Of a stretch of DNA of 54,237 bases, positions 4,302 through 31,286 are shown one piece after another (positions within the stretch are counted from its first letter, which is position 1; every line of letters begins with the position of its first letter). The DNA is from a virus (lineage: Duplodnaviria > Caudoviricetes). Both the position numbers and the translations under genes were made by a program. The stretch covers positions 1 to 54,237 of IMG/VR virus record IMGVR_UViG_3300046169_000074. The stretch is one strand, 5' to 3'. Under the pieces are notes generated by a model. It saw only the letters and a list, made by a program, of their open reading frames with translations. It was not told the origin of the DNA and did not search any database.

Positions 4302-4319
4302 TTATTTGTAGTGATTATA
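4292..4319 (+). promoter_or_regulatory. Class II promoter-like motif (TAAV-N15-GTRAYTATA)
   Basis: TAAG-N15-GTGATTATA upstream of endolysin. Confidence 0.6.
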
Positions 4320-5838: not shown

Positions 5839-5913
5839 ATGAAAAGAAAAGTTGAAATAAGTAAACTACTATATGTAGTAATAATGATCGTGGCTTACGC
5901 TGTATCGATCTAA
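5839..5913 (+). CDS. 24-aa hydrophobic peptide MKRKVEISKLLYVVIMIVAYAVSI
   Basis: ATG..TAA read by hand; basic N-terminus plus TM-like stretch; stop overlaps the nrdA stop. Confidence 0.45.
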   Translation: MKRKVEISKLLYVVIMIVAYAVSI

Positions 5914-7536
5914 CCTTCGCAAGAAGAACACTCTAGTATATTCCTACTAAATGCTTGTGCAGAGCTTTTACTAAATTGATAGTATAAAGTTTTAACACCT
6001 TCCTTCCAAGCATATAAATACAACTGATTAATATCTTTAGCTGGTACACTAGGATCTATCATTAAGTTTAGGCTTTGTGATTGATCTATATACTTCTGTC
6101 TTTGAGCAGCTTGTAATACTATTTCTTTAGGTGATATTTCTACAAACGACTTGAAAACTTCTTTAGTCGGAAAATTTAAATGCTGAACCGAACCATCCTT
6201 GTTTAGTATATCCTCCCAAACTTCATCTGTATTCAAACCATACTTATCTAGCTCACACTCTAAAAAGGGGTTTTTATATACTGTTTTAGACTTAGCTAAA
6301 TCCTTTACAAAGTAATTAGACTTGATAGGTTCAATACCCATACTAACTGCTCCGTGGATGAATGAGCTAGATTTAGTAGGTGCAATAGCCATTAATGTTG
6401 TGTTTGCAAAACCTTCGCGTATACATTCATATCCCTTGTATTCAGAGAGCCATTTAGAAGCCGTCTCTGATCGTTCTTTTATAGTCTTGAATATTTCATT
6501 GTTCAAAGCTTTAGCCTGCAGAGAATCAAAGTTTATTAACTTAGATTGAAACAGAGAATGGTAACCTAAAACTCCTACGCCAATAGCTCTATGCTGTGAA
6601 GCAAACCTATTAGCTCTAGCTAAACCAGGTAGCGTAGCAGATTTGACAATGAACTCATCTAAAACAGCATTTAAAAACTGAGTATATACCTCAATAGCGT
6701 CAGTGCTTTTAATTTCATCCCAGTGTAACAGGTTAATAGAACCTAAACAACACACGAAAGAGTTGAAGCTATCAGTTGGCAACTGTATTTCAGAGCATAA
6801 GTTTGAAGCTGTAATATCTAAACCTAACTCTTTGTAAGGTGAGTTATTATTAGAGTTGTCTTTAAACATTATGTATGGAAAACCAAACTCAGATCTTCGC
6901 TGAATTATCTTAGCCCAAACTTCTCTCTTCTTTTTACTACCCTTAGACATACTCTGCATCCATTCATCTGTAACGGTGATACCGTATTGTAGATTTTGAA
7001 TAGGGTTTCCTTCTGTACCAATATCCAGAAACTCTAATATATCAGCATGTTCAACAGGTAGATATACAGCACAAGCACCTCTTCTAGCCTCAGCTTGCTT
7101 AGCAAACATCGACAGTGGTATCGTACATACGAGCATAATGAACAGGTCCGTCAGCTTTACCACCAGTTGAAATAACTGTACCTCGTGGTCTTATATTTCC
7201 TAAATAAGCTGATGTTCCTCCTCCATATTTAGACATCATACCGATCTCCCTAGATGCATTTAGAATTGAATCAAGATTGTCATCAATGTTAGATCCGTAA
7301 CAACTAATTGGTAAACCTTTATTTTTACCAAAGTTTATCCACACAGGAGTAGACAAGGAGTAAAAACCCCTTGCCATATAGTCTTCAAACTTCTGAGCGA
7401 ATCCATCTATCTTTAAATGTTTCTCAGCTGTGTTAGCTATATCTTTAATTCTTTGTTCTGGTGTCTCGGTTATGTAACCTCTAGACAAGAACAGCCTGGA
7501 CTCATCATTGAGCCAATAATATTTCTTTCGTTCCAT
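5910..7536 (-). CDS. nrdA: Ribonucleotide reductase class I alpha subunit (one extra base near 7101)
   Basis: PISC, GGGTS, RRGA, SNLCSEI, CCLGS, AIAPTKSS, IDQSQSLN, KTLYY, C-terminal CSSCEG; the two ORFs join if one base is removed. Confidence 0.92.
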
Positions 7537-13407: not shown

Positions 13408-14053
13408 TTAGTATTTTAAGGCTTTACTAATCAAAGGAAACTGATCTTTAAATATACTTTTAGCTTCCTTAGCAACTAACTGTATTTCTTTCTGAGCATG
13501 CTCGTCATCTCTAAGCTGTAGGAAGTGTATCCAACTTCTAATACTACCAGTCATAAATATTTTAGTTTTAGTAGTCAGCGGTAGTATCATCCTAGCTTGC
13601 TCTCTAGCTACGCCAGCGTTTAATAATTCTACATATAAAGATTTTATAGCGCCCAACATACCGTTTATAACTTCATTAGCGTTAGTTGTAGCGTGAAACC
13701 TTATAGTAGGATTAAATACCTCCGTAGATGACTGCCTATTGTCATCACACTGCTTACGTAACTCTATAGGTTCAAACATTTCATCTAACTTGTTTACATC
13801 TTGGTATCGTTGACTAAACTCTTGAAATGTAAATGATCGATGTCTTATAAGCTGTATACCTATTGCTTTGCTAGTATTTATTTCTAATGTTAAGTAGCTA
13901 TGCTCGAAAGGGGCTGAAGTGCTTATGATTGATTAAATAATTTATAAGACCCTCTGGTTTAGCTTTCTTATCCTTACGACTACTACTAACTCTAGCTATT
14001 TCGACTATATTATCTTCAGCGTTAGGTGTAACTGATTGTAGTTTCACATTCAT
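13408..14053 (-). CDS. thyx: Flavin-dependent thymidylate synthase (one extra base near 13910)
   Basis: HFSPFEH, RHRSFTFQEFSQRY (RHRx7S), EQARMILP, HAQKEI; span is 646 nt = 3n+1. Confidence 0.9.
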
Positions 14054-15344: not shown

Positions 15345-15372
15345 TATAATCACATATAAGGCCCCTAATTTA
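15345..15372 (-). promoter_or_regulatory. Class II promoter-like motif
   Basis: TAAA-N15-GTGATTATA between sigma and ERF genes. Confidence 0.6.
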
Positions 15373-15392: not shown

Positions 15393-16148
15393 CTACAGGT
15401 AATCAACCACTTGCGAGTGCGGTACATTATCTATTAATTTGTCTATAGCTTGCTTTTTTAACTGTGAAACACGTACGTAAGAGCTAGTACCTTTAATACC
15501 TAAAACTTCAGCTATCTCTTTAGCGGAATACTTACTACAGTCTAAACCGTAAGATAATCTCAATACTTGATATTCTTTAGGGTTTAAATGCTCCATCATT
15601 ATACTTTTTAAGTATGCTAGCAATATATCTTTATTATATTCTTTAGCATTATCAGGTATATCATTAAAAGTGTTATTATCATCAGTATTATTATCTAAGC
15701 TTAAAAACACCGAATTAAAAAACAAGGCAACCATTTTTTTATCCTCACCGAAATCTTTACGTATTTCGTTTAGTTTATGCTCTGGTATACGCATAGTACC
15801 TCTATTCATATCAATAGCTCTTCGTATTGCACCACGTATACGTTTTGCTAAAAAAGATTTTAGTCTTTGTTCTTGATCTTCGGCTTCGCATATAGTATTC
15901 CAGTTGATTCTATCAACAGCTTGTATTAAACCTAAATTACCTTCTTGTATAAGATCATTTATAGTCATAACACCTGAAGCTTGTTGAGCTGTGGAAAACT
16001 TACGTGCTAAATTCTCTACCAAAGGTAAAAACTTAACTATAAGTTGATCTCTAGTGTATTCATGAAACTCTCTACGAGGGAGAAGCTCAATACTTTCGCT
16101 TACATCATTTTTATATCTTAAATAATTTTGTATATTATATTTCTTCAC
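15393..16148 (-). CDS. Phage sigma70-family RNA polymerase sigma factor (group 3-like)
   Basis: LPLVENLARKF, DLIQEGNLGLIQAVDR, RIRGAI, MRIP, region 4 KEIAEVLG...RVSQLKKQAIDKL. Confidence 0.9.
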   Translation of the reverse strand: MKKYNIQNYLRYKNDVSESIELLPRREFHEYTRDQLIVKFLPLVENLARKFSTAQQASGVMTINDLIQEGNLGLIQAVDRINWNTICEAEDQEQRLKSFLAKRIRGAIRRAIDMNRGTMRIPEHKLNEIRKDFGEDKKMVALFFNSVFLSLDNNTDDNNTFNDIPDNAKEYNKDILLAYLKSIMMEHLNPKEYQVLRLSYGLDCSKYSAKEIAEVLGIKGTSSYVRVSQLKKQAIDKLIDNVPHSQVVDYL

Positions 16149-16783
16149 AATGTTCCATTTAATAGTTCTTTTTCTCTTTTTAATTCGTTACATATATTAC
16201 GATGAATTGTACGTGTAGAACAGTCTAATAAACTTGCTAGACGGCTTATCGTGATCTTTTTTCCCATATCGTTAATATCTATCATACATTGATAAATATC
16301 ATCAGGATGGATCCGTTTTTGACGACCTATTAAACCACCTACTATACTTAACTTTTCAGCTTTATCGATACCTATACCTTGTTTAAATATAACCTTACGT
16401 AGTTTATTCTTAGGTGGAGCATCAAGATCAGACATGTAAACGTCATGTATAATTCTATCTAACGATGCTTCAGATATTGTAAAGGTACAAAAACCATTTG
16501 ACTTATCAGCTATAAATTCCGATAAATCTGTAAAATCATCTGTAGTCAACCTAGGATTTAAATACCAAAGCACTAATAAGTGCCATTTTAAACTCTTAAA
16601 AGTATTTATCTTTGCCTTGCTTTTAAATAAATCATAAGCAGAATATGTACCGTCAGCGTAAAACCAATATTGATTTGTTTCTATAGTAGGTTCTTCTAGA
16701 CTTGTATTTGGGTCTAACCTAGTTATAATTCTTTTACGATGTAACCATTCAAAATTCCTTGATATATTTAAGTTTTGTGACAT
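16145..16783 (-). CDS. Protein with C-terminal helix-turn-helix (regulator or replication initiator)
   Basis: KITISRLASLLDCSTRTIHR; overlaps the sigma start. Confidence 0.65.
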   Translation of the reverse strand: MSQNLNISRNFEWLHRKRIITRLDPNTSLEEPTIETNQYWFYADGTYSAYDLFKSKAKINTFKSLKWHLLVLWYLNPRLTTDDFTDLSEFIADKSNGFCTFTISEASLDRIIHDVYMSDLDAPPKNKLRKVIFKQGIGIDKAEKLSIVGGLIGRQKRIHPDDIYQCMIDINDMGKKITISRLASLLDCSTRTIHRNICNELKREKELLNGTL

Positions 16784-16821
16784 TAGCCAGTTACTATATT
16801 ATTAATTAGGCTTTTGTCACA
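16776..16821. repeat. 46-bp palindromic site, copy 1 (inverted relative to copies 2 and 3)
   Basis: TGTGACAttaGCCAGTTACTatattaTTAATTAGGCtttTGTCACA; covers the HTH gene ATG. Confidence 0.85.
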
Positions 16822-16903
16822 GTCGGAGTGTAACGTTGCAATGATAATCCGCTTAGAATCATCACCTTGAGGATATTTAATTTTATTAAATTCCTCTATT
16901 TTC

Positions 16904-17374
16904 TTAATTAGGTCTTCTTTCATAAATAGTTTCTTTATTAGGGTTTGCAACTGTATTTTTTTCGCCTATGTAATAATTCCAATAAGCCTCAACACTACAT
17001 TCAGCTTTATACTCATCAGGCATACACTGAGGTGGTTGTGTTAATAATTCCATTGGTATACCTTTAGGTATTTGCCATAAGTGCTTACATTTAGTTATAG
17101 ATAAATGCTCTTTACCGTATCTATTTCTATATTCCTCACCTAAGCCCATCATATGTCTGTATAACCAAGAATAGTTACTAGCATTCTCACGCGTCCATTT
17201 TGTTGAAGGGTGATTATAATGCGCTTTCTTATAAGGTATATCTACACTACTTTCATAATGATGATGTGCAGTACATAGCATTTGTGCAGATTCTAAGATC
17301 ATTTTAACTACATGCTTATTATATTGTAGCCTCGCAGCTTCAAACGGATCTTCATCTAAGTAAAATATATTCAT
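16904..17374 (-). CDS. Pyrimidine-dimer DNA glycosylase (DenV-like) family protein
   Basis: MNIFYLD, KHVVKMILESAQML, HPSTKW, EYRNRYGKEH, QCMP. Confidence 0.75.
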   Translation of the reverse strand: MNIFYLDEDPFEAARLQYNKHVVKMILESAQMLCTAHHHYESSVDIPYKKAHYNHPSTKWTRENASNYSWLYRHMMGLGEEYRNRYGKEHLSITKCKHLWQIPKGIPMELLTQPPQCMPDEYKAECSVEAYWNYYIGEKNTVANPNKETIYERRPN

Positions 17375-17535
17375 TCGTTCCAGCGTTTTATTATGTTAAT
17401 AACTATGAAGGCGTTAGCAATAATAGCTTGTAGAACTATAATTGTTCTAAATATAGCTACTCTATCAGCTTCTTTGTTAGTTTTACCACTTTTTTCACCA
17501 AGGGCTCTAGCCCAATGTCTCCATAAGTATCTCAA
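17371..17535 (-). CDS. 54-aa membrane peptide
   Basis: TTG start, WRHWARALGEKSGKTNKEAD followed by a hydrophobic stretch. Confidence 0.55.
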   Translation of the reverse strand: MRYLWRHWARALGEKSGKTNKEADRVAIFRTIIVLQAIIANAFIVINIIKRWNE

Positions 17536-17643
17536 TCTTCATATATTTTGTCTAACAGTTGTACAGCAACTCTTAGAGTTATTTTTTCTTCTTCGTATAG
17601 TTTTTGAACTAATTTACTTATCTTCATACGCTTTATTTGACTT

Positions 17644-18546
17644 TTATTCATAATCTCGTATACATTTAAACAAAGGGTGTCGGTAACTACCAGCTTTAGT
17701 ACGTTCGAAGTACGTAAAGGTAGCTGTTTTACCAATCCATTTTTGCATTTGTTTGAAATTTGTTTGTAACTTTTTGAAATTATCCATTACAGGCATACCA
17801 AATTCAATACCGTTAGCATCAATAGCTAGAAATTTACCGATAGTACCAGTTCGTTTACCTTTACCTTCAACCCAGCCAACTATTTCAGCTTCAGAGTCAT
17901 GGAAGTCTTTGAATTTACGTAAACTATGAGATCGTTTAGACTGATACTCAGAGTTAGTACGTAATATAGAACCTTCGTAACCTTTAGCTAAGTTAGACCC
18001 GTGTAGTTGTTTTGCAAACTTTTCAGCCCATACTTCGTGAGTTTCAACGTGTTTTACACAATAAGACTCTGTTAAATTCAACTTAACCCACTCGTCACGT
18101 AGATCAAACTTACCTGACCAGTGTTCAGATTTAGCGAAACGATCTGATAATATAGCATCGTAACAGTGGAACTGAACTAGGTTTTTAGATTCTATTCTGT
18201 GATCCATTGTAGGTTTAGTTTTACGCACACAAGATATAATCTTTTCAAAGTCATCTTTTAGATCGTGGTTGTACAATTCACCGTCAAGAACTACATCTGG
18301 GTTACATTCAAAGAACCATTGTAAACTTTCAAGTATGTGCCGTATGTTTTTCCACTCTTTACCAGTACGTGAATAAGCTTTAATAACAGTACCTAAAACT
18401 ACTGGGTCGTACTCAGCTTGTATTAAGCAACGTACGCCATCAAGCTTTGGTTGAATGAAGTTTTTAGTTTTATAATCTATTGGTTTTTTACTTACCGGGT
18501 AAGCTAGCATTGGTTTATGTCTCATCATCTTGTTCTCCTTCTTCAT
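17644..18546 (-). CDS. ATP-dependent DNA ligase
   Basis: PMLA, QPKLDGVR, LDGELY, YEGSILR, KFKDF. Confidence 0.92.
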   Translation of the reverse strand: MKKENKMMRHKPMLAYPVSKKPIDYKTKNFIQPKLDGVRCLIQAEYDPVVLGTVIKAYSRTGKEWKNIRHILESLQWFFECNPDVVLDGELYNHDLKDDFEKIISCVRKTKPTMDHRIESKNLVQFHCYDAILSDRFAKSEHWSGKFDLRDEWVKLNLTESYCVKHVETHEVWAEKFAKQLHGSNLAKGYEGSILRTNSEYQSKRSHSLRKFKDFHDSEAEIVGWVEGKGKRTGTIGKFLAIDANGIEFGMPVMDNFKKLQTNFKQMQKWIGKTATFTYFERTKAGSYRHPLFKCIRDYE

Positions 18547-18799
18547 TTGGTTTGTTAAATTCTTCAGTTATATTAAGTTTATCAGTTAATTTTTCTATTT
18601 TAATCTTCATTACAGCACATTTTTCATACTCTTCACGATCTAGGTATATGTTTTGTAATGTAACACATCTAGCTAACTCACCTACCATATGATCTCTACT
18701 GTCATGGGTAAGCCAGTCTTCGCCAGATGTCATCATAGCTTTTTTTATCAAGGCATCAGCTACGTATACGCCTAGTTTTTCTAAGTCTTCGTTCGTCAT
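18515..18799 (-). CDS. Hypothetical protein with UVR-like motif
   Basis: EEYEKCAVMKIKI. Confidence 0.55.
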   Translation of the reverse strand: MTNEDLEKLGVYVADALIKKAMMTSGEDWLTHDSRDHMVGELARCVTLQNIYLDREEYEKCAVMKIKIEKLTDKLNITEEFNKPNEEGEQDDET

Positions 18800-18802
18800 A
18801 TA

Positions 18803-18837
18803 TATAATATCTACATCAATTCGTATTTAGATCGTAA
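18803..18837 (-). promoter_or_regulatory. Class I promoter-like motif
   Basis: TTACGATCTAAATACGA-ATTGATGT-AGATATTATA. Confidence 0.75.
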
Positions 18838-19254
18838 TTTATCTGGTTTACCTACAAATAAACAGGTTTTACCTTCAAATATACTAACCCAGAACTCTTC
18901 ACAACCAGGTTTAACCCATATATAGTATACAAAATCAACCCACAACTTCGTTGTTTCTGACTCTAGTATTATTTTAGAGCTAAACTTTTGGTTTTCTAAG
19001 TACTTTATTAAGTTTATTGGAACTCTAGTTATAACATACTCATCAGTATCTTCTAAAAACTTAGCTAATTCAACACCTAAGTAAGCAGGGAAACCATCAT
19101 AATGTCTATATATTTGATAGGTTTCAGGCTTTTTAGGTCTTTCACTGAACGAAATACCTGGTTCTCGCTTAGCAAATCTTATTATTCCTTTAGTCGACAT
19201 ATTTACCTTTTTTATAGCCAAATGAGAATATTTGATCATTATCAAGCATTTCAT
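18811..19254 (-). CDS. Hypothetical phage protein
   Basis: YRHYDGFPAYLG motif; true start may be MSTKG. Confidence 0.6.
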   Translation of the reverse strand: MKCLIMIKYSHLAIKKVNMSTKGIIRFAKREPGISFSERPKKPETYQIYRHYDGFPAYLGVELAKFLEDTDEYVITRVPINLIKYLENQKFSSKIILESETTKLWVDFVYYIWVKPGCEEFWVSIFEGKTCLFVGKPDKLRSKYELM

Positions 19255-19365
19255 TTAGAAATTTATACTCATTAGTTAACCTTGGTCTAATACAGTACTT
19301 CGTTGAGTAAATTACTTCTTCTGAATGAGCTCTTTCAGTATAAAAAAACTGTACTAAATACTTTT

Positions 19366-19677
19366 TCATACTTCAAAATCTTCAACGTTAGCACCCATTT
19401 TCTTTAACATATCTACAACTGTACCTGGTAATTCAAACATACCATCATAATCAGTCAGTAGCTCACTAGAGAACCATAAACCACCCTCAGCGTAGTAGTC
19501 GTTACCTCCGCTCTCTTCGTCGTAAAGCTCAAATCCGCCGTTTTCATTGTCTTTATCCCACCATACCTCGTAATTCATAGTTTTACTCTCTGGCTTAGTT
19601 CCATTAAATGACGTTTGGTAATTAACATACTCAACTTCCTTGCGTTTTTCACTTAAAATATTAGATTGTTTTTCCAT
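19366..19677 (-). CDS. Hypothetical acidic protein
   Basis: 103-aa ORF, YAEGGLWF...DYDGMFELP. Confidence 0.6.
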   Translation of the reverse strand: MEKQSNILSEKRKEVEYVNYQTSFNGTKPESKTMNYEVWWDKDNENGGFELYDEESGGNDYYAEGGLWFSSELLTDYDGMFELPGTVVDMLKKMGANVEDFEV

Positions 19678-19990
19678 AATTGTCTTTGTAAATAGGTATT
19701 TGAGTTCTATACCTTTTGATTCTACTTAATTTTTCAGCTTCTGCTTTTGCGATGTTCTCTTGCTTGATCTTTTGTTTGTTGCGTTTGAAGTCTATTTGCT
19801 CTTGAATTAGATCTGAGTTGTAATACTTTTTAACTTTATCGAGCCTCCATTGTACATCTCCGATCTCTTCGATGATCTCTGGCGTTAAATCTTTGCTAGA
19901 CTTGTTAAGTTGTTGCGTTATAACTGTAGCTAACTCTAGAAGTTCTTCAACTAGTTTTTGATGATCTTTTAAGTTTTTACCTATATCCAT
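19661..19990 (-). CDS. MazG-like pyrophosphatase domain protein
   Basis: KLVEELLEL...IIEEIGDV. Confidence 0.6.
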   Translation of the reverse strand: MDIGKNLKDHQKLVEELLELATVITQQLNKSSKDLTPEIIEEIGDVQWRLDKVKKYYNSDLIQEQIDFKRNKQKIKQENIAKAEAEKLSRIKRYRTQIPIYKDNYGKTI

Positions 19991-20080
19991 TACTCATCCG
20001 ATGTGTTATAAGCTACTATACATATAATTCCGACACTAAGTGCTGTAGCTATCATTAATAATAAGTGCATAATTTTCTGT

Positions 20081-20272
20081 TTAAAGGTTTGCTTTTTTAA
20101 TAAAGTGATTCGCTACTTGTGGTATATGCTCTTTGTAATACGGTTGCTCATCTTTACACCACATACGTACCTCGTCTTTTGTTTTAAATGTTTGGTAAGG
20201 AAACGTCACTTCCAGACTTTCAATAAAGTCAGACACGTGCCAACCTTCCCAAATGTGTTTATCGTTTTTCAT
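20081..20272 (-). CDS. Hypothetical protein
   Basis: 63-aa ORF with A-rich leader after tRNA-like element A. Confidence 0.6.
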   Translation of the reverse strand: MKNDKHIWEGWHVSDFIESLEVTFPYQTFKTKDEVRMWCKDEQPYYKEHIPQVANHFIKKANL

Positions 20273-20285
20273 AGTTTTATTTATT

Positions 20286-20387
20286 TAGTGCTCAAGGGTG
20301 GATTCGAACCACCACTTCCAATTACTACTTCCGTATCTACCCGCTTAGTTCATAGTTGTAGCGCTCTATCATATCAGAGTCTTGAGC
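20286..20387 (-). ncRNA. tRNA-like element A with expanded anticodon loop
   Basis: Acceptor GCTCAAG/CTTGAGC, D-like CTCT/AGAG, GCTAC/GTAGT stem around about 29 nt, T arm GGTGG-TTCGAAT-CCACC, 3' ACTA. Confidence 0.65.
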
Positions 20388-20470
20388 CGTAAGCCTTATT
20401 TCTTCTCCATTAGACAGGATTATATAGGGACCTGAATTGCGAACCTTAAAGTTTGCTTACGTAACGTTTG

Positions 20471-20617
20471 CTGTAGGGGAAGGACTCGAACCTCCACGTA
20501 GCGGTTAGCTATAGGACAAGTTGTGCACAATGGTGGTCAACCCGCTATCCTAAAGTTTATTCCGTGATCTACACCCCCGAGACAGGAGGGCACGTCTGCC
20601 AATTTCGTCACCCTACA
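20471..20617 (-). ncRNA. tRNA-like element B: GTC anticodon, Leu-type D arm, about 78-nt variable arm
   Basis: Acceptor TGTAGGG/CCCTACA, ACG-AAATTGGCAGA-CGT, CCCTC-CTGTCTC-GGGGG, GGAGG-TTCGAGT-CCTTC. Confidence 0.75.
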
Positions 20618-20755
20618 ATTAGCTTAGAATAAACCTATCTTTTTACTAATTCCTCTTGAATTTCGTTTGTATCTTTCATAATTTTACTTTATTTTGCTTA
20701 ACTTCTACTGCCGCTATAACGAATACAGCGATTATACCTGCTATATAGTATGACA

Positions 20756-21031
20756 TTAGTCTAGTAACACCATATAAGCTTCCGCATTATTATGTCTAAA
20801 CCAGTCTAAACCTCTTCGAAGATCTTTGACAGCTTCATTATACGAGTCTGTATGTGGATTCATACGTTCAGTCCACATAGTAGCACCCATCACCATATCG
20901 TATATAGATAGTTCTATTGCGTTTAGCTTTATACTTTCTCTACTAAATGGGTTTGTACATACTGCACCTTCTGTATAAACCTCACCGTTGAACCATTTAG
21001 GTACTTTTTGTTCTTTAGTATTAGTCTTCAT
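20756..21031 (-). CDS. Hypothetical protein
   Basis: 91-aa ORF in the early cluster. Confidence 0.6.
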   Translation of the reverse strand: MKTNTKEQKVPKWFNGEVYTEGAVCTNPFSRESIKLNAIELSIYDMVMGATMWTERMNPHTDSYNEAVKDLRRGLDWFRHNNAEAYMVLLD

Positions 21032-21407
21032 TTTCTATTGAGCTTATAATTTGTAAGTGGTTGTCTAATATATTGCTTTGTATTCTATTCGCTAAGCTTT
21101 CTACAAGATAGCTTTCAACGTTGTAACTATCTACATTTATAGTGTTGTCGTAGTCAATGCTTAATTCTACGTTAATATCATCGCTGCTTAAGCTATCTAA
21201 CTCTGATTCAACGGTTTCGTAAATACAATCTTGTATCTCATCCCACTGCTTATCAGTCATAGATGGTTTATTAGCTAGTTTTAAGTCTTTATGAAGGTTA
21301 TCACTAAGCTGTTTAGCTGCGCCTAACTGTGTAGCTAAGTCTCTTATTACTTCGTCTTGTTGAGTTATTTTAAGCTCTAACTCATCAGCTGTTTTACTCT
21401 TGTACAT
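21021..21407 (-). CDS. Hypothetical coiled-coil/acidic protein
   Basis: 128-aa ORF overlapping neighbours. Confidence 0.6.
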   Translation of the reverse strand: MYKSKTADELELKITQQDEVIRDLATQLGAAKQLSDNLHKDLKLANKPSMTDKQWDEIQDCIYETVESELDSLSSDDINVELSIDYDNTINVDSYNVESYLVESLANRIQSNILDNHLQIISSIENED

Positions 21408-21591
21408 ATGTTAATCCTTTATAGTTAATCCATTCTTCAACGCCTGGCGTGTCTTGGTAGTCAATGCAACCGAAGTTGTTAGGTGTGTTACCAACCTCGT
21501 AAGGTCGCCATTTAGTAGTATAAACTATACCAGCTATCTCGTTGGTTACTAGCATTCTACCGGTTTCTTTGTTAATTTTTAGTGTCTGCAT
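21394..21591 (-). CDS. Hypothetical protein
   Basis: 65-aa ORF downstream of a class I motif. Confidence 0.6.
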   Translation of the reverse strand: MQTLKINKETGRMLVTNEIAGIVYTTKWRPYEVGNTPNNFGCIDYQDTPGVEEWINYKGLTYVQE

Positions 21592-21606
21592 TTGTTTTTC
21601 GTTTAT

Positions 21607-21641
21607 TATAATATCTTTGAGTGGTCGTATTTATATTGTAT
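21607..21641 (-). promoter_or_regulatory. Class I promoter-like motif
   Basis: ATACAATATAAATACGA-CCACTCAA-AGATATTATA. Confidence 0.75.
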
Positions 21642-21642
21642 A

Positions 21643-22218
21643 TTAAGTTAAATTATACCTGTGACCGTCAATAATTACTTGAACCTCTCTTGCGCTACAT
21701 AAATCTTTTTCTAAAGTTAAGTAGTCCGAAAGTAAAGCATCATACTTCTCTGATAAAATATCATAGTCTCTAGCTGTCTTTGTAGGTAAATTATTCATTA
21801 CATAAGAATCTATATGGTATAAAGTTTTACCTTTATAGTAATTCTTCAGTATATAGTTGGCTAAGTAAATGATTCTGTCTTCTTCTCTGTTTATTAATAT
21901 ACGCTTAACTGACTCGTAAGACTTATATTTCTTAGTGAAATTGCAGAAATATTTTTTAGTATGTAAATACTTCTTGTTAATCTGATAAGAACTATGACCG
22001 TATTCACTACAATTTCTAACGTAACCCGAAGAGTATATAGCGAATTTTAACTTTGTAGTTTTACCAGTTGAAAACAATCTCTCTGCAGGTATTTGCCACA
22101 TTCTTGTACCATTCTTTTGTTGAATTTTCGATGTAATTTCTTTAATACCGAGTACATCGAACAAAGCTAGAGCTTCGTGGTGCGACTTTACATACTCGTT
22201 TTCGTAAGTTTGTTTCAT
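21643..22218 (-). CDS. Hypothetical protein
   Basis: 191-aa ORF, no recognised motif. Confidence 0.6.
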   Translation of the reverse strand: MKQTYENEYVKSHHEALALFDVLGIKEITSKIQQKNGTRMWQIPAERLFSTGKTTKLKFAIYSSGYVRNCSEYGHSSYQINKKYLHTKKYFCNFTKKYKSYESVKRILINREEDRIIYLANYILKNYYKGKTLYHIDSYVMNNLPTKTARDYDILSEKYDALLSDYLTLEKDLCSAREVQVIIDGHRYNLT

Positions 22219-22535
22219 AAGTATAATATTTTTTCAATTCTTTCTTTTTCACTCTGGCTTAGCGTACCGTAGTACTCGTAGTAAAACTCATCTAGTGATA
22301 AATTACCGTTACGATCACCATTTTCGCTTAATTCTACAAGCAGATCTTCTGCCTTACTCCACATTTCGTCGTAATTATCCATACTATTTAGTTATATAAA
22401 ATCCTTGTTCATGGTTTGCCTCAGAAGCGTTTAGCTCAGCTAGTATTTCTTGTGCGTTTTCTTCATCTAATCCTTCTCTAATTACTTGCTCCCAGTCTGA
22501 AGTTTTGGAGCAGCATACAATTTTGTACTTGTAAA

Positions 22536-22739
22536 TCATATCTCTTTAATTTTAGTGTTAACGTTTTCCATTGCCATTCTGTAACCTGTATTCATACTCA
22601 TCTGCATGAGAAGTAAATCCATATTACCGTGATTAGCTTTAGCGAATTTCTCTAAGTAGTCTCTGTTAGGAGCTGCTACCATAGATCTTTCAAGCCTACC
22701 GAGCTCTCTGTCGATGTATTCTGTTAGTTCTTTATTCAT
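22536..22739 (-). CDS. Hypothetical protein
   Basis: 67-aa ORF with A-rich leader. Confidence 0.55.
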   Translation of the reverse strand: MNKELTEYIDRELGRLERSMVAAPNRDYLEKFAKANHGNMDLLLMQMSMNTGYRMAMENVNTKIKEI

Positions 22740-22897
22740 GACTAATTTTTATTAAGTTAATTTCTTCGTTTATCATGTCTAATCTTGACATACCTTCTAG
22801 TGTTTCTACTTCGCATTCCCAGCAAGTGCCACACTCTACTTGTTCTCTTAACGTTTCTAACGCTAGTATTAGTAAATCTTTGTTCATAATTTTAATT

Positions 22898-22941
22898 TAG
22901 TGGACATGGTAGGAATCGAACCTACATTAACCATTATGCCC
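22898..22941 (-). ncRNA. tRNA-like element C (acceptor stem plus T arm only)
   Basis: GGGCATA-ATGGTTAAT-GTAGG-TTCGATT-CCTAC-CATGTCC-ACTA. Confidence 0.6.
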
Positions 22942-23054
22942 TTAAAAGCTATGTTACTCGTCAGTAACTCCATCTCCAGCGGAAGTTTCGTGGTTCCTAG
23001 TTGCACTTAGTTCCATGTCTACTACATGGTTCCAGACCTGTGAGTGTTTTAGCC

Positions 23055-23264
23055 TTACCTTAAACAAGTACCGTAACCTTTACGTCTACCTGCTTTATAC
23101 AAAGCGTCAGCAGTTTCTTGACTAACTATTTGTATTGTGTTACCTGTCTTGTGATTGGTGATCGGTGCACAAGCATATCGCTGTGTACGTGAACAACCTA
23201 TACAAGTTGTATACCCTAAGTCTAACCGTCCTTGTGGTATCTCTGTGTTACATTTACATTTCAT
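23055..23264 (-). CDS. DksA/TraR-like C4 zinc-finger protein
   Basis: CKC..EIPQGRL..GYTTCIGC. Confidence 0.55.
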   Translation of the reverse strand: MKCKCNTEIPQGRLDLGYTTCIGCSRTQRYACAPITNHKTGNTIQIVSQETADALYKAGRRKGYGTCLR

Positions 23265-23267
23265 ATA

Positions 23268-23302
23268 AATAATATCTCAGAGTGATCGTATTAGTTTTGT
23301 GA
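23268..23302 (-). promoter_or_regulatory. Class I promoter-like motif
   Basis: TCACAAAACTAATACGA-TCACTCTG-AGATATTATT. Confidence 0.75.
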
Positions 23303-23455
23303 TTTGAACGTACTTGGCCAGTCACCACAGAAGTCATAACATGCTTCACATACGTCATCTTCGCAAAGGTGCAGAGGTGCAGAGCAAATACTACACTCAG
23401 ATGAGTTATCGTCTTCAATAAACTCAGTAAAATAAGTCTCGTTGCTGTTCTTCAT
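23291..23455 (-). CDS. 54-aa Cys-rich acidic peptide
   Basis: CSIC...CEAC read by hand. Confidence 0.5.
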   Translation of the reverse strand: MKNSNETYFTEFIEDDNSSECSICSAPLHLCEDDVCEACYDFCGDWPSTFKSQN

Positions 23456-23644
23456 ACTCTTGTATTTGTATATTTAAATACTCTATTTCCCACTCGTCTC
23501 TGTTCTCTTTGATCTTATCTGTAGTAAGTTGCATATACTTTTACTCCTTTTTTAGTTTCACAAATTAGTTTATCTTCTTTCTGTATAACCTTTTCCGTTA
23601 CTTTTGGTTTATACTTAGGGTTCTTGCTGTTTAGTTTTCTTTTC

Positions 23645-23806
23645 TTACTCATTGTCTTCAAAGCTGTTAAAGGATAATATTAGTGCCATTAATGTTACTG
23701 GTGCTACGGCAAGGAACATAATCTTACCTGTCTGATTGAACAGCATCACCATTGAGGAGCATACTATAATAAGTATTAGTCCGTAGTAAAAAGCTAGTGC
23801 TTTCAT
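23645..23806 (-). CDS. 53-aa two-TM membrane peptide
   Basis: MKALAFYYGLILIIVCSSMVMLF...MFLAVAPVTLMALILSF. Confidence 0.55.
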   Translation of the reverse strand: MKALAFYYGLILIIVCSSMVMLFNQTGKIMFLAVAPVTLMALILSFNSFEDNE

Positions 23807-23945
23807 AGTTTTAGTTTAGTTGTTAGTAAAAATCGTAGTATATATCTAATACTTTCTCTCTTTGAGCTTTCGTTAGTCTGCTCCAATGCTCGTTGAATAG
23901 TTGAAAACCTATTCTTAATACTTTTCCATTCATAATTTATAATTT

Positions 23946-24023
23946 TAGTGATAGCGTGAGAATCGAACTCACCAATACTCCAAGACTACCTGTTGTATAT
24001 ATTTCTGCGCCGTGTTATCACTA
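23946..24023 (-). ncRNA. tRNA-like element D (T arm plus acceptor-like stem, degenerate core)
   Basis: TAGTGATAAC/GCTATCACTA stem; GTGAG-TTCGATT-CTCAC; 3' ACTA. Confidence 0.6.
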
Positions 24024-24105
24024 CTTTAATAAGTGCACCTCGACTTACGATCACTACAATACTTGTTCATATTTGATTACCAGTAAACAAGTGGAACTAA
24101 CTGGA

Positions 24106-24336
24106 CTACTTCTTCCACCATGGGTTATATGGTTTCTTGTAATTTAACTCGTAGTACTTCGCGTACATTTGCTCAGCTTCGATCTTATAACCATCACTTG
24201 ACAACTTATCTATAGTGTCAAATATTTGGCGATGCTCTCGACTACCGCTTTTGTAGTCACGGTGATCGTCTGAGTAACCATAGAGCCAATCGTGTGATTC
24301 GAGCTGACTCTCGAGTGTTTGTAATAACTTACACAT
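24106..24336 (-). CDS. Hypothetical protein
   Basis: LESHDWLYGYSDDH motif. Confidence 0.65.
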   Translation of the reverse strand: MCKLLQTLESQLESHDWLYGYSDDHRDYKSGSREHRQIFDTIDKLSSDGYKIEAEQMYAKYYELNYKKPYNPWWKK

Positions 24337-24337
24337 G

Positions 24338-24577
24338 TTACTCTACAACTACTGCTTCTGACTCACGAAGAACTTTTGGTAAGTTTCCACTCGCAGTGTA
24401 AGATTTGTACTTGTCCCAGCAAGCCATTTGCTCTAAAGAACCTTTCATAATCTCGAACGCTTTGTCGTGAGAATAAGTAACTGTGTTACCGTTTTTGAAT
24501 GATACTTCAATGTTAGTATCTTTTCCGATTAGAGATTTACGCACTACGAATCTCTTTGATTTAAGTAAATTTGCCAT
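24338..24577 (-). CDS. Early protein, paralog of 25011..25232
   Basis: KRFVVRKSLIGKDT...HD...MACWDKYKSYT. Confidence 0.75.
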   Translation of the reverse strand: MANLLKSKRFVVRKSLIGKDTNIEVSFKNGNTVTYSHDKAFEIMKGSLEQMACWDKYKSYTASGNLPKVLRESEAVVVE

Positions 24578-24622
24578 AACTTATTGATTTTTATTTAGTT
24601 ATTAATTGTTTTTAGTTACGTT

Positions 24623-24657
24623 TATAATATCTACACTTGTTCGTGTTTAGTTTGTAA
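24623..24657 (-). promoter_or_regulatory. Class I promoter-like motif
   Basis: TTACAAACTAAACACGA-ACAAGTGT-AGATATTATA. Confidence 0.75.
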
Positions 24658-24747
24658 AAGTAGTAGATTTGTTTTAGTGATAATTTTTAGCTAGCAGGTA
24701 CTCCACCACTTGTCTCAATGAGCAATAATACTTCATTTAGTGAATAG

Positions 24748-24794
24748 TGTGACATTAGGCTACTAATATAGTATAGTAACAGGCAATTGTCACA
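24748..24794. repeat. 47-bp palindromic site, copy 2
   Basis: TGTGACAttaGGCTACTAATatagtatAGTAACAGGCaatTGTCACA. Confidence 0.8.
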
Positions 24795-24933
24795 GTTTAT
24801 CAAGAGATCTTATTGCTTGAAATAGTGCAATGATCGAAGTGATAGCAGTTAATAGAAAACCTGTGTGATGAGTGATCCACAAATGTGAAGCAAACAGAGT
24901 TAGGTACAGTGTAAACATGTGATACTTTTGCAT
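24790..24933 (-). CDS. 47-aa hydrophobic peptide
   Basis: MQKYHMFTLYLTLFASHLWI...FLLTAITSIIALF read by hand. Confidence 0.5.
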   Translation of the reverse strand: MQKYHMFTLYLTLFASHLWITHHTGFLLTAITSIIALFQAIRSLDKL

Positions 24934-25010
24934 AGTAATTTATTTTAAATAATTAGTAATGATCGCGTGTGATACTATGATCGCCGATGTGAGTAGAATA
25001 AAGATCGCCA

Positions 25011-25232
25011 TTAGTCAACGATCTTCATGTCTCTACAAAAAGCTGGCATTGCATTGCTATTCGTATATGATTTATACTTTGTAAAGCAATTCATACTTTC
25101 GAACCTCTCCTTGTGAGCGTTGTATACTTCGTCGTGATTATACTTCACGTTCTCACCCTTCTTGTTGGTGAATGTAATAATAGTGTCTTTGCCAATTAAT
25201 GACTTGCGAATAACGAATCTTTTTAATTCCAT
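25011..25232 (-). CDS. Early protein, paralog of 24338..24577
   Basis: KRFVIRKSLIGKDT...HD...MNCFTKYKSYT. Confidence 0.75.
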   Translation of the reverse strand: MELKRFVIRKSLIGKDTIITFTNKKGENVKYNHDEVYNAHKERFESMNCFTKYKSYTNSNAMPAFCRDMKIVD

Positions 25233-25260
25233 AATAGTGTTTGTTTATTTTAGTTACGTT

Positions 25261-25295
25261 TATAATATCTGTTGTACTTCGTTTTTAGTTTGTGA
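25261..25295 (-). promoter_or_regulatory. Class I promoter-like motif
   Basis: TCACAAACTAAAAACGA-AGTACAAC-AGATATTATA. Confidence 0.75.
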
Positions 25296-25296
25296 A

Positions 25297-25458
25297 TTAC
25301 TCGATTGCTTTTAATTTTTCTAAGAATAAGAACATACAAAACCCAGAACTGAAAGCTATTGCGTAGAAGATTGAATGCTCTGCCATGCCGAGCCATAGAG
25401 CTACGAGAGTTGAGAATAAGCAGAAGAAGAATGCAGCGTAAAGTAAGATAGTTTTCAT
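25297..25458 (-). CDS. 53-aa two-TM membrane peptide, first gene of the leftward block
   Basis: MKTILLYAAFFFCLFSTLVALWLG...IFYAIAFSSGFCMFLFL. Confidence 0.6.
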   Translation of the reverse strand: MKTILLYAAFFFCLFSTLVALWLGMAEHSIFYAIAFSSGFCMFLFLEKLKAIE

Positions 25459-25481
25459 AAGTAGTTTATTTTTGTTACATA

Positions 25482-25516
25482 TATAATATCTAATTCGCTT
25501 CGTAGCGAGATCGTGA
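25482..25516 (-). promoter_or_regulatory. Class I promoter-like motif
   Basis: TCACGATCTCGCTACGA-AGCGAATT-AGATATTATA. Confidence 0.7.
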
Positions 25517-25519
25517 AAG

Positions 25520-25579
25520 TAGGGGTGGGTATAGAGATTGCGTTTTGGTATAGGGGTGGGGTGGCTTAAAGGTAGGGGG
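25520..25579 (+). repeat. G-rich direct repeat (TAGGGGTGGG x2 plus TAGGGGG)
   Basis: Copies at 25520 and 25551; G run at 25575. Confidence 0.7.
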
Positions 25580-25634
25580 CTACACTTTAATTATATATAT
25601 ACAACATCCCTAAAAAAGGGTACCCTATAAAAAG

Positions 25635-25680
25635 TATGACATTAGCCTAATTAAGTATAGAGTAACAGGCTAGTGTCACA
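25635..25680. repeat. 46-bp palindromic site, copy 3
   Basis: TATGACAttaGCCTAATTAAgtatagAGTAACAGGCtagTGTCACA. Confidence 0.85.
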
Positions 25681-25683
25681 CTG

Positions 25684-25712
25684 TAAATAATTAGGTGATA
25701 CGTGTAACTATA
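25684..25712 (+). promoter_or_regulatory. Class II promoter-like motif heading the rightward block
   Basis: TAAA-N16-GTAACTATA. Confidence 0.55.
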
Positions 25713-25736
25713 CTACTGAACATTAAAATACATGTT

Positions 25737-25886
25737 ATGCCTTTTGGAAAAAGTAAAAGTAATTATAAAAAGATGATGCGTAAAGAGAAGCGAGCACATA
25801 ATAAAGCTGCACGCCAAACATTTCGTGAAGATCATCCAGGGGCTTTAAAAAGATTATTCGGAGCTTACAAAATAAAAAATAAATAA
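25737..25886 (+). CDS. 49-aa basic peptide
   Basis: MPFGKSKSNYKKMMRKEKR... Confidence 0.55.
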   Translation: MPFGKSKSNYKKMMRKEKRAHNKAARQTFREDHPGALKRLFGAYKIKNK

Positions 25887-27553: not shown

Positions 27554-29119
27554 ATGGAATACAACTTACCAAGCGAATTGGTTAAGAACTTAGACTTCGG
27601 TGATAAGGCTAAAAATAAAGTAGTCACAGGAGTTCAAAAACTTGCGAAAGCCGTAAAGTCCACGTTAGGAGCATCAGGGAAATGTGTCGTTTATGAAGAT
27701 GGACGCGGTAAACCGGTGATCACAAAAGACGGTGTAACCGTTGCGGAAAGCGTAGTCTTATACGATCCGGTTGAAAACATGGGTGCTACACTAATTAAGG
27801 AAGCGGCTCGCAATACAGTGAAAGAGGCTGGTGACGGTACAACTACCGCTACAGTACTAGCTGAAGCACTTATACAATCTATTGACTCTGCCGTCGCTGC
27901 AGGGTTATCTATCAGACAAATTAAAGATGAAGTTAACACATGTTTAGAAGAAGTTCTAAATACTCTAACTGACTCAGCTGTTGAAGTTGAAGGTGACATG
28001 CTCCAATCTGTTGCTGCTATTTCTTGTAACAACGATAAAAAGCTAGGTGGTATAATCGCTGAAGCTTACGAGACTGTTGGTAAGAACGGTGTAGTACTAA
28101 TGGAGGAGAGTGAATCTGAAGACACTTATGTAGAAGTAGTTGATGGTGCTCAGTTTGATTCTGGTATTACATCACCGCATTTTATAACTAATACTGATAA
28201 ACACACAGCGGAGTTAGACAACCCTTATGTACTAACTGTTATGTCTGAAATACCTAATATTAGAAAGATTCAAGGTGTTTTAGAGTACGTTATTAAAGCC
28301 AACCGAGCTTTACTTATTGTAGCACCCGTTGCTCAGCAGGTAAAATCGGCGCTTCTTATGAATAAGGTGAAAGGTAATATAAAAGTTAACATCGTTGACC
28401 CACCTGGATTTGGACCTACACGTAAAGATGCTTTAGAGGATATTGCTATACTAACTGGTTCTACTATCATCAATGAGGAGCTTGGCGATGATTTAGATTT
28501 AATAACACCAGATAGCTTAGGTGAAGCTGAATTTTCGGTTACCAACGATAAAAACACTGTTATAACTCTAGAAGGAATGACTCAAGAGCTTGAGGATCGT
28601 ATAGATGAACTAAACTATAAGATAACTGAAGAGCAAAATGGGTTTATCAAAGGTAAGCTTGAGCAAAGGCTAGCCACTCTTTCTGGTAGCGTTGGTATAG
28701 TTAAAGTTGGCGCTAACTCCAAAGTTGAGTTAAAAGAAAAGAAAGATAGAGTTGAAGATGCTATATACGCAACTAAAGCTGCTTTACAAGAAGGTATTGT
28801 ACCAGGTGGTGGAGTAGCACTATTAAACGTTTCTCAAAAAATTTTTTCCACCCAAGGTGGACAAGTTCTTTTATCAGCTCTAAGAGCTCCTTTTGAAACC
28901 ATATTGGATAACGCAGGGTTTGAACTTAAAGCTGATCCACAGGGAGCTGGAGTAGGTTTAGATGTAGTAACAGGGGAACAGGTTGATATGATTAACGCTG
29001 GAATTATAGATCCTGTACTAGTTACTAAGACGGCATTGAAAAACGCCACTAGCGTAGCGCTAACCGTAATGTCCGCTGATTGTGTAATTTCAAACGTCAG
29101 AGCAAATGAAAGCAATTAA
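27554..29119 (+). CDS. groEL: Chaperonin GroEL
   Basis: ITKDGVTVA, AGDGTTTATVLA, PGFG, KKDRVEDA, GIVPGGG, GIIDP. Confidence 0.97.
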   Translation: MEYNLPSELVKNLDFGDKAKNKVVTGVQKLAKAVKSTLGASGKCVVYEDGRGKPVITKDGVTVAESVVLYDPVENMGATLIKEAARNTVKEAGDGTTTATVLAEALIQSIDSAVAAGLSIRQIKDEVNTCLEEVLNTLTDSAVEVEGDMLQSVAAISCNNDKKLGGIIAEAYETVGKNGVVLMEESESEDTYVEVVDGAQFDSGITSPHFITNTDKHTAELDNPYVLTVMSEIPNIRKIQGVLEYVIKANRALLIVAPVAQQVKSALLMNKVKGNIKVNIVDPPGFGPTRKDALEDIAILTGSTIINEELGDDLDLITPDSLGEAEFSVTNDKNTVITLEGMTQELEDRIDELNYKITEEQNGFIKGKLEQRLATLSGSVGIVKVGANSKVELKEKKDRVEDAIYATKAALQEGIVPGGGVALLNVSQKIFSTQGGQVLLSALRAPFETILDNAGFELKADPQGAGVGLDVVTGEQVDMINAGIIDPVLVTKTALKNATSVALTVMSADCVISNVRANESN

Positions 29120-30491: not shown

Positions 30492-30705
30492 TGTTATAAG
30501 AAAAATAACTATTGGTAAGGATTATAAAAACGATTCTATGCACTACGCTATAGGTCAAGGTGTTTATGGTGGTCATACGATATGTCATATATTAGAAGAC
30601 GAGTATAAGTACTCGATATACATATCTAAAGGTGATATAGTTATACCTTGGAAAGACTTTAATAAAAACATGGCTGTGTCTGTAGAATATGACTTAGAGT
30701 ACTAA
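30481..30705 (+). CDS. Hypothetical protein
   Basis: IRKITIGKDYKNDSMHY. Confidence 0.65.
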   Translation: MTNSVIRKITIGKDYKNDSMHYAIGQGVYGGHTICHILEDEYKYSIYISKGDIVIPWKDFNKNMAVSVEYDLEY

Positions 30706-31286
30706 TGAAACCTATTGTAGACTTTATAATAAAACCTTTAGGCGAGAGGTATAGTAATTCAAAAAAGGTTGGTGATAAAGAACTTATACTAAATACGGAG
30801 GTATTTAACCATCAATTTGTAAATAGGATAGCTGTAATAGAATCCTCACCATTACACAATCCATTAGGCTTAATGGAAGGTGATAAAATCATAGTTCATC
30901 ACAATGTTTTTAGGAGATGGCATAACGTTAAAGGTTTAGAGAAAAATAGTAGAAGCTTTCTAAGCGAAGACCAATACGTAGTACAACAAGATCAAATATA
31001 TATGTATAACAGGGATGGTGAATGGTCTTGCCTCCCTGGATATACTTTCGTGAAGCCTTTAGTGTCTAAGGATGAATTATCTGTAGACAAAGAAGTTCCG
31101 CTCATGGGTGTAGTTAAGTACTCAGATGGTTCTTTTCTGCCTACACAACTTGTAGGATTTTCACCTGGTGATGAATTTGAGTTTGTTGTAGATGGCGAGA
31201 GGCTCTATAGAGTTATAAACAAGTATATTAATATTGAATATGAATATAAAGGAGACGAAGAAGAGTATAATCCAAGCTGGGCATAA
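30705..31286 (+). CDS. Tandem GroES-like protein
   Basis: FIIKP..EGDKIIV..QDQI and FVKP..GVVKY..VDGERLYRV. Confidence 0.55.
   Translation: MKPIVDFIIKPLGERYSNSKKVGDKELILNTEVFNHQFVNRIAVIESSPLHNPLGLMEGDKIIVHHNVFRRWHNVKGLEKNSRSFLSEDQYVVQQDQIYMYNRDGEWSCLPGYTFVKPLVSKDELSVDKEVPLMGVVKYSDGSFLPTQLVGFSPGDEFEFVVDGERLYRVINKYINIEYEYKGDEEEYNPSWA

Follow-up and report, generated by a model that had tools for sequence, protein, structure and literature searches.

The DNA analysed here is the complete IMG/VR record IMGVR_UViG_3300046169_000074 (Duplodnaviria; Caudoviricetes), a marine podovirus sequence of 54,237 bp that is called the window throughout and is 84% complete according to CheckV. It holds three copies of a palindrome of 46–47 bp, one of which lies across the start codon of a gene for a protein with a helix-turn-helix (HTH); these palindromes, and the HTH protein proposed to bind them, are the subject of this account. 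The genes run in two directions. Leftward, from ∼25.46 kb down to 5.9 kb, there are small early open reading frames (ORFs), a ligase, the HTH protein, a sigma factor, Erf, an exonuclease, a primase-helicase, and nucleotide metabolism genes; rightward, from ∼25.7 kb, there are GroEL-like, terminase, portal, virion, and tail-fibre genes. The portal is P22-like, and the lifestyle appears lytic. The features that matter most are the following:

16776–16821, minus strand: copy 1 of the palindrome ("class A"), 46 bp, reading TGTGACA-AAA-GCCT...AGTAAC-TGGC-TAA-TGTCACA on the minus strand
24748–24794, plus strand: copy 2, 47 bp, separating two paralogous early genes
25635–25680, plus strand: copy 3, 46 bp, with TATGACA as its left arm, in the divergent early/late intergenic region
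16145–16783, minus strand: 212-residue protein with a predicted C-terminal HTH, the proposed binder, described from its ORF, a homologue alignment, and a structural model
15393–16148, minus strand: phage sigma-70-family factor gene, overlapping the stop codon of the HTH gene
16783–16923, minus strand: small upstream ORF, the 3′ end of which traverses the palindrome and stops at the TAATG junction

The three copies occupy exactly the positions given by the original prediction, an earlier note on this DNA. Copy 1 is inverted with respect to copies 2 and 3, which are direct repeats, and it does cover the HTH start codon, as had been claimed: on the minus strand its gene-proximal arm, ATGTCACA, supplies the start and first codons (M-S-Q) of the HTH ORF, and the ATG overlaps the TAA of the small upstream ORF as TAATG. 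The placement of copy 2 between paralogous early genes also holds, these genes (24338–24577 and 25011–25232) being 49% identical (E 4e-23); 89 nt separate it from a leftward promoter-like repeat at 24610–24658. Copy 3, said to adjoin the first rightward promoter, ends 28 nt before the TATACT of a motif that is kept in relatives. As for the consensus proposed earlier, its symmetric outer arms stand, its "AATTAA-N6" core is not found family-wide, and its asymmetry is weaker than claimed.

When sites were defined as TGTGACA plus TGTCACA over a total span of 44–49 bp, with at most one mismatch summed over both 7-mers, the window gave three sites; 300 dinucleotide-preserving shuffles gave a mean of 0.057 and never more than one (17 of the 300 had one). 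Dyad symmetry comprises the arms TGTGACA/TGTCACA and also AGCC/GGCT, in all three window copies and in the 75 unique sites from relatives. Each half-site can be written TGTGACA-NN-AGCCY, often followed by N-TTA, and two of them flank an AT-rich centre of variable length (10–14 bp) that differs among the three window copies. The AGTAAC on one side is the sole consistently stronger asymmetry, and this side always faces the HTH gene. A degenerate fourth site is present at 20745–20776, at the 3′ end of an ORF (20756–21031): its left arm, TATGACATTAGTCT, runs straight into AGTAAC, the right arm is absent, and the similarity to the left portions of copies 2 and 3 is 78–79%.

How far does the element extend beyond this genome? 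Conservation of the site in relatives, a check named in the original prediction, was found throughout the homologue set, which consists of the best 80 of 451 IMG/VR relatives, picked by protein similarity alone (54–80% identity). The palindrome stands at the start of the HTH gene in 80/80 of them, with no mismatch over both 7-mers in 45 loci, one in 29, and two in six; its length is 46 bp in 61 loci, 47 in 15, 48 in two, and 45 in two. The HTH ATG is inside the gene-proximal arm in 71 of these loci. The sigma factor gene follows HTH in 78/80, and Erf follows these in 72/80. The upstream neighbour varies, with a ligase homologue in 57 loci and, within 2.5 kb, a homologue of phrog_624 in 46. An exact-pattern scan of IMG/VR gave at least 121 stretches; the 80 loci examined from these carry 82 sites (78 distinct, 46–49 bp), and 41 distinct HTH-homologue ORFs start at the site or no more than 45 nt after it.

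Four relatives, G001–G004, with HTH proteins 70–80% identical to that of the window and CheckV completeness of 99–100%, were compared over longer distances. The element is at the HTH start in all four. In G001, G003, and G004, the contigs of which cover the early region, one or two further copies lie 8.5–11.8 kb upstream of HTH in unchanged relative orientation; upstream copies are not visible in G002 because its contig ends on either side of this region. Thus, one or two further copies occur at the early/late divergence region in 4/4 records that cover it, the window included.

A palindrome at the start of a gene might be maintained as a sequence, as a hairpin, or as coding DNA. Coding does not explain the conservation because upstream ORFs cross the left arm in three frames (frames 1, 0, and 2 in 59, 13, and three of the 75 distinct sites, with stops at offsets 5–40) and because copies 2 and 3 are non-coding. 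Regarding pairing, the RNA folds of the palindromes are favourable (−14.5 to −19.3 kcal/mol; z-scores of −3.9 to −4.4, better than shuffles). However, compensatory change is absent from the 11 base pairs that the obvious hairpin would form in the alignment of these 75 sites: the covariation score is 0.061, the shuffle mean is 0.061, and 234 of 500 shuffles reach the score. The variant CGTGACA is present in the left arm of 10/75 sites and in the right arm of 6/75, TATGACA in 7/75 and 10/75, with the two sides independent, and half of the arm variants disrupt pairing (C.A, A.C). Identical variants that arise independently on either side are expected if a protein reads two equivalent half-sites, and are not predicted by a hairpin. 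What is conserved thus seems to be two half-sites recognised by their sequence, and neither a hairpin nor a coding stretch. Searches with Rfam covariance models at the sites gave zero matches at E up to 1, and a terminator scan returned five terminator-like matches, none at a palindrome.

The distribution of the site agrees with that of the gene. In a distant HTH subfamily (24–36% identity), which differs in its recognition helices, 33 loci covering 210 kb are free of TGTGACA palindromes, and in two related phage records a true palindrome is missing along with any credible homologue of HTH; this agreement of presence and absence supports the HTH protein as the reader. Members of the distant subfamily (L244–L275) start at or over the stop codon of a GroES-like gene, and some are 241–256 residues long with a C-terminal extension. 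In the window, the GroES-like (30705–31286) and GroEL-like (27554–29119) genes are both far from HTH. A weak A1 match in Flavobacterium phage elemoA (E 0.0014, 13.5 bits), surrounded by genes for structural proteins, was discarded. The HTH-sigma module is absent from all cultured phages that were searched.

The HTH protein belongs to a very large family: grouping at 90% identity gives at least 8000 clusters, all unnamed or "hypothetical", and grouping at 50% gives 401 representatives; the protein atlas likewise gave unnamed viral HTH clusters only. Across an alignment of 42 homologues the mean column identity is 64%, and R191, T192, and R195, in the putative recognition helix, are invariant. 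The HTH families of Pfam score below threshold only: HTH_11 matches all 42, and HTH_7, the HTH of resolvases, gives a weak match in 10. The AlphaFold model of the protein has a pLDDT (predicted local distance difference test) of 87.8. In this model the C-terminal ∼60 residues form a three-helix unit that is similar to TetR-type DNA-binding domains (Z up to 6.6; root-mean-square deviation 2.8 over 53 residues). Foldseek found no match in the PDB at E up to 0.001, a sequence search of the PDB gave chance-level matches only, and HTH shows no detectable kinship with the phage sigma factor when the profiles of the two are compared (probability 0.35%).

At the other end of the early region, copies 2 and 3 stand among elements that resemble promoters:

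25682–25714, plus strand: promoter-like element following copy 3, TGTAAATAAT ... GTGTAACTATACT, conserved in relatives
25469–25517, minus strand: first of the leftward promoter-like repeats (family D1/D2), with 117 nt between it and copy 3
25521–25583, no strand assigned: G-rich tract (GGGGTGGG-type runs) that separates copy 3 from the first leftward repeat, kept in G001, G003, and G004
18790–18838, 21606–21645, 23267–23306, 24610–24658, 25248–25296, and 25469–25517: members of the leftward repeat family

The first rightward gene has its ATG at 25737. Around copy 3, the order of leftward repeat, G-rich tract, CCAATATTTACAA-like motif, palindrome, (T)GTAAATAAT, and TGTGAyTATACT is kept in the window, G001, G003, and G004, and it recurs at many copy-3-type sites of other relatives. 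Motifs of the TGTGAyTATA type occur before Erf (TGTGATTATA, 15345–15354, minus strand), before the endolysin gene (AGTGATTATA, 4310–4319, plus strand), and before the first rightward gene (25702–25714, plus strand); they may represent a promoter class read with the phage sigma factor. If TATACT is the −10 element, copy 3 occupies positions ∼−86 to −41 relative to the rightward promoter-like element that comes first. Copy 3 is also ∼120–165 bp upstream of the first leftward one. In relatives, an A-run and a T-run flank many of the copy-2-type sites. The leftward repeats, TTATAATATCT-N8-TTCGT-N-TTTAG-N-TTGT on the plus strand, stand upstream of leftward small genes and look like early promoters, yet they do not fit the −33/−7 consensus of Bacteroidota. 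Small indels between strains are located in the G-rich tract.

Taken together, these data favour, with moderate confidence, a reading in which the palindrome is the predicted operator of the HTH protein, feeding back on the HTH-sigma operon and gating the divergent promoters. This reading is favoured because the site is tied to the HTH start in every homologue examined and because it is conserved as sequence, not as pairing or coding; autoregulation would best explain such a fixed placement. The original prediction had offered operator or origin sites for the HTH protein, and of these the operator is the better supported part, the origin having gained no support. The site would be a two-fold symmetric piece of DNA with two bipartite half-sites, and its binder a phage regulator, most probably the 212-residue HTH protein. 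Since the gene junction has no room for a promoter, HTH and the downstream sigma gene would first be expressed through read-through of leftward early transcripts. As it accumulates, the HTH protein would occupy copy 1 and block HTH-sigma expression, a negative feedback exerted through a roadblock or an occluded initiation region. It would also occupy copies 2 and 3 at the divergence region and in this way gate the switch from early to late genes.

Several points weigh against the operator reading. The HTH_11 match of the window protein is sub-threshold (20.2 bits, with a curated cut-off of 25), and the N-terminal 150 residues have no clear match among solved folds: aligned alone with VIA-align, this domain gave 5.4 as its highest Z, a value that cannot be interpreted. 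Covariation of site and recognition helix was not established, close homologues being invariant in both; with hardly any variation in either the arms or the helix, phylogeny confounds the association of the site with the HTH gene. The variation in site length, 45–48 bp, is awkward for a rigid dimer. The arms resemble a −35 hexamer. Finally, copy 1 is within a transcribed gene junction, where a role at the RNA level is equally possible.

The rivals are taken up in descending order of probability: first an RNA-level element, next a different binding protein, then a promoter, and last an origin of replication and sites of recombination. An RNA-level element, which is unlikely, would make the hairpin with the HTH AUG in its 3′ arm a translational operator or coupling device, and the copy-2-type sites terminators or processing hairpins. 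The stable folds, the start codon in the arm at 71/80 loci, the TAATG stop-start overlap, and the A-run and T-run beside many copy-2-type sites of relatives speak for it. However, covariation is nil and half of the arm variants break pairs; copy 3 precedes both of the divergent promoter-like elements and may not be transcribed at all; and the window copies have no T-run, are not among the terminator matches, and match nothing in Rfam. Could another protein, from the host or from the phage, be the reader? We consider this rather unlikely. The phrog_624 "DNA binding protein" encoded upstream is a candidate, with its homologue within 2.5 kb in 46/80 loci, and one class-B-like copy is found in a bacterial chromosome, but the phrog_624 gene is not in the flank of the other 34, bacterial genomes are almost free of copies, and the placement on the HTH start best fits autoregulation. 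It is improbable that the palindrome is itself a promoter for the phage sigma factor, with the arm GTGACA as −35 and the central TAnAGT as −10, yielding a near-leaderless HTH-sigma transcript and positive autoregulation. A consensus match (GTGACA-N16/17 followed by TATAGT, TATATT, or TAGAGT; 9–10 of 12 positions) is present within all three copies, and the AGTAAC side always points toward HTH. On the other hand, such matches are not above shuffles in the region as a whole (40 vs 47.1), the would-be −11 position is A in just 45/75 sites, the downstream arm, unneeded by a promoter, is equally conserved, and a different motif (TGTGATTATA) stands before Erf, the endolysin gene, and the first late gene.

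Use of the copies as sites of replication origin or unwinding, with the HTH protein as initiator, is decidedly improbable. The AT-rich centre would suit it, and the GC-skew check proposed by the original prediction gave a cumulative minimum at ∼23–25 kb; the skew switch coincides with the gene-strand switch, though, and cannot be separated from it. In G004, nine TGTCA/TGACA 5-mers are packed into ∼90 bp beside copy 2, but such an iteron-like cluster occurs in one genome of five, and the copies are dispersed over 8–12 kb, unclustered. The cluster is at 24248–24338 (L032:4248–4338), against a background of 1.8 per kb, and the other four genomes have nothing alike. Very improbable indeed is the alternative that the original prediction had set beside the operator, namely, site-specific recombination that would flip the early region (8–9 kb) or cut out 0.9 kb. 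In its favour, copy 1 has the opposite orientation to the direct copies 2 and 3, some homologues match HTH_7 weakly, and sequencing run X2 has contig joints inside palindromes, 16793 to 24773 (depth 12.5) and 24770 to 25659 (depth 2). These joints have seven and three extra letters between their sides (the flanks were not displayed), and joints of this kind can be split alignments of a variant site. The remark that the window has no recombinase was borne out for serine and tyrosine recombinases: PF00239 or PF00589 was found in none of five genomes (the window and four relatives), in searches that matched 12 and 14 of 14 control genomes, and the recombination genes named by PHROGs in the window are only Erf, an exonuclease, and a Holliday-junction resolvase. 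Profile and fold searches likewise gave the HTH protein no resolvase catalytic domain. A shared crossover spacer is lacking, as each of the three copies has its own centre. No inversion isoform was seen, the two X2 joints aside: in 4/4 genomes the 8.5–11.8 kb that separate the HTH site from copy 3 have their coding strand in common with HTH, and contigs of marine runs made independently span the copies in the canonical arrangement, copy 1 in X1 and X5, copy 2 in X1 and X2, and copy 3 in X2. With no recombinase, differing centres, and uniform orientation, this alternative is unsupported.

How does the operator reading compare with systems already described? Operators of the lambda repressor/Cro type are dyad sites of ∼17 bp at divergent promoters, served by a small, autoregulated HTH regulator. 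The palindromes share the dyad symmetry, the presence of several copies in a divergent region, one copy at the gene of the would-be regulator (which implies autoregulation), and the small HTH protein. They differ in being 45–48 bp long, with bipartite half-sites of ∼14–18 bp each around a variable AT-rich centre; moreover, one copy is 8–12 kb away, on a start codon in a gene junction, and the protein family is unannotated. Translational operator hairpins that include a start codon are known from the MS2/Qβ replicase operator and from the targets of T4 RegA and gp32. There, as here, the AUG lies in a hairpin-forming conserved sequence, in this case with the regulator AUG in the 3′ arm, but the window has additional copies in probably untranscribed DNA, there is no covariation, and the candidate binder is an HTH protein. 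In phage N15, dispersed centromere-like palindromes are bound by SopB; the resemblance consists of a few palindromes scattered over a phage genome, one HTH protein as would-be binder, and supposed effects on transcription, whereas PHROGs scans of the window ORFs name no ParA/Sop-type partition ATPase and this phage appears lytic.

Two further comparisons concern repeated elements at variable regions and recombination sites. T4-type promoter-early stem-loop (PeSL) cassettes flank hyperplastic regions, and the palindromes are similar in that stem-loop-forming repeats lie beside early promoter-like repeats and bracket a hypervariable early region; unlike them, the element described here hardly varies in sequence among hundreds of genomes and is tied to a single regulator gene. 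The hix, gix, and res sites of small serine recombinases share imperfect inverted half-sites and a protein of ∼200 residues with a C-terminal HTH, but here no catalytic domain was found, the site is ∼20 bp too long, no central dinucleotide context is shared, and no isoforms were seen. Operator-like regulation is therefore of a known kind, and what is unusual is the site of 45–48 bp, its bipartite half-sites, the start codon in its arm, and the copies that bracket the early cassette. No paper on this palindrome was found among the matches listed in full-text literature searches, and passages of PMC6487183 had no bearing on it.

Another question concerns the host. Judged by terminase similarity, the phage group is of the Flavobacteriia type: the large terminase of the window is 47% identical to those of the Flavobacterium "elemo" phages, it also matches phages of Cellulophaga, Tenacibaculum, and Maribacter, and it is 65% identical to that of the uncultured podovirus MW202828. 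Neither the window DNA (megablast) nor the HTH and sigma proteins (tblastn) had any match in the cultured-phage collection. An exact-pattern scan of the genomes of 185,579 bacterial species returned 12 stretches. Eight are unrelated palindromes in DNA of 51–70% G+C, and three are on contigs of metagenome-assembled genomes (MAGs) that carry the phage HTH-sigma module (one contig is of 63 kb). Because there are only 12 bacterial matches, three of them on contigs with the phage module, a common host regulon site is unlikely. The remaining one is a solitary class-B-like copy in a Salibacteraceae MAG, on a contig of 1.29 Mb (L293:10320–10366, corresponding to 622319–622365 of G005 contig 1). It is 380 bp past a tRNA-Ser gene; the 3-kb islet around it has 35% G+C, and the flanking DNA 44–46%. 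The four ORFs of this islet have no Pfam family, no match to the phage loci compared, and one weak PADLOC match (Cmr6, E 0.00064). This copy is perhaps a hint at the host group, or else a phage element that was captured.

A conserved cis-element tied to the HTH-sigma operon offers a testable handle on the timing of gene expression in abundant uncultured marine phages, and the palindrome is a compact sequence signature with which such phages, and their early and late control regions, can be located. The segment 16500–26000 of the window is matched in seawater and marine viral metagenomes from 13 studies. One can also imagine a wider scheme, which we regard as quite unlikely, in which the HTH protein and the palindromes would form a long-range switch that bridges both ends of the hypervariable 8–12 kb early cassette, through looping or insulation, and shuts this cassette off during the takeover by sigma-dependent transcription. 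The near-invariant sites would in addition serve as portable joints for swaps of early cassettes between co-infecting phages, and the Salibacteraceae copy would be a phage-responsive element that the bacterium has captured, such as a sensor or a decoy.

A few observations concern the records themselves. Many IMG/VR contigs terminate near a palindrome. These ends were considered as genome termini and rejected, since the ends of G001, G003, and G004 overlap at 89–99% identity; they are taken as assembly breaks at an inverted repeat or hypervariable region. In G001 (1–846 and 66500–67128) and G004 (1–805 and 71332–72097) the overlap has just 89–93% identity, as if the assembly had circled into a strain variant, and that of G001 includes copy 2. 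Within the window, two tRNA-like matches on the minus strand (20289–20387 and 22901–22977) score 26.7 and 24.2 bits, with an Rfam gathering score of 29, and ARAGORN reports zero tRNAs. Two minus-strand genes, those of a ThyX-type thymidylate synthase (13408–14053) and of the large subunit of ribonucleotide reductase (5910–7536), each continue in a different frame, which reflects a frameshift or an assembly error.

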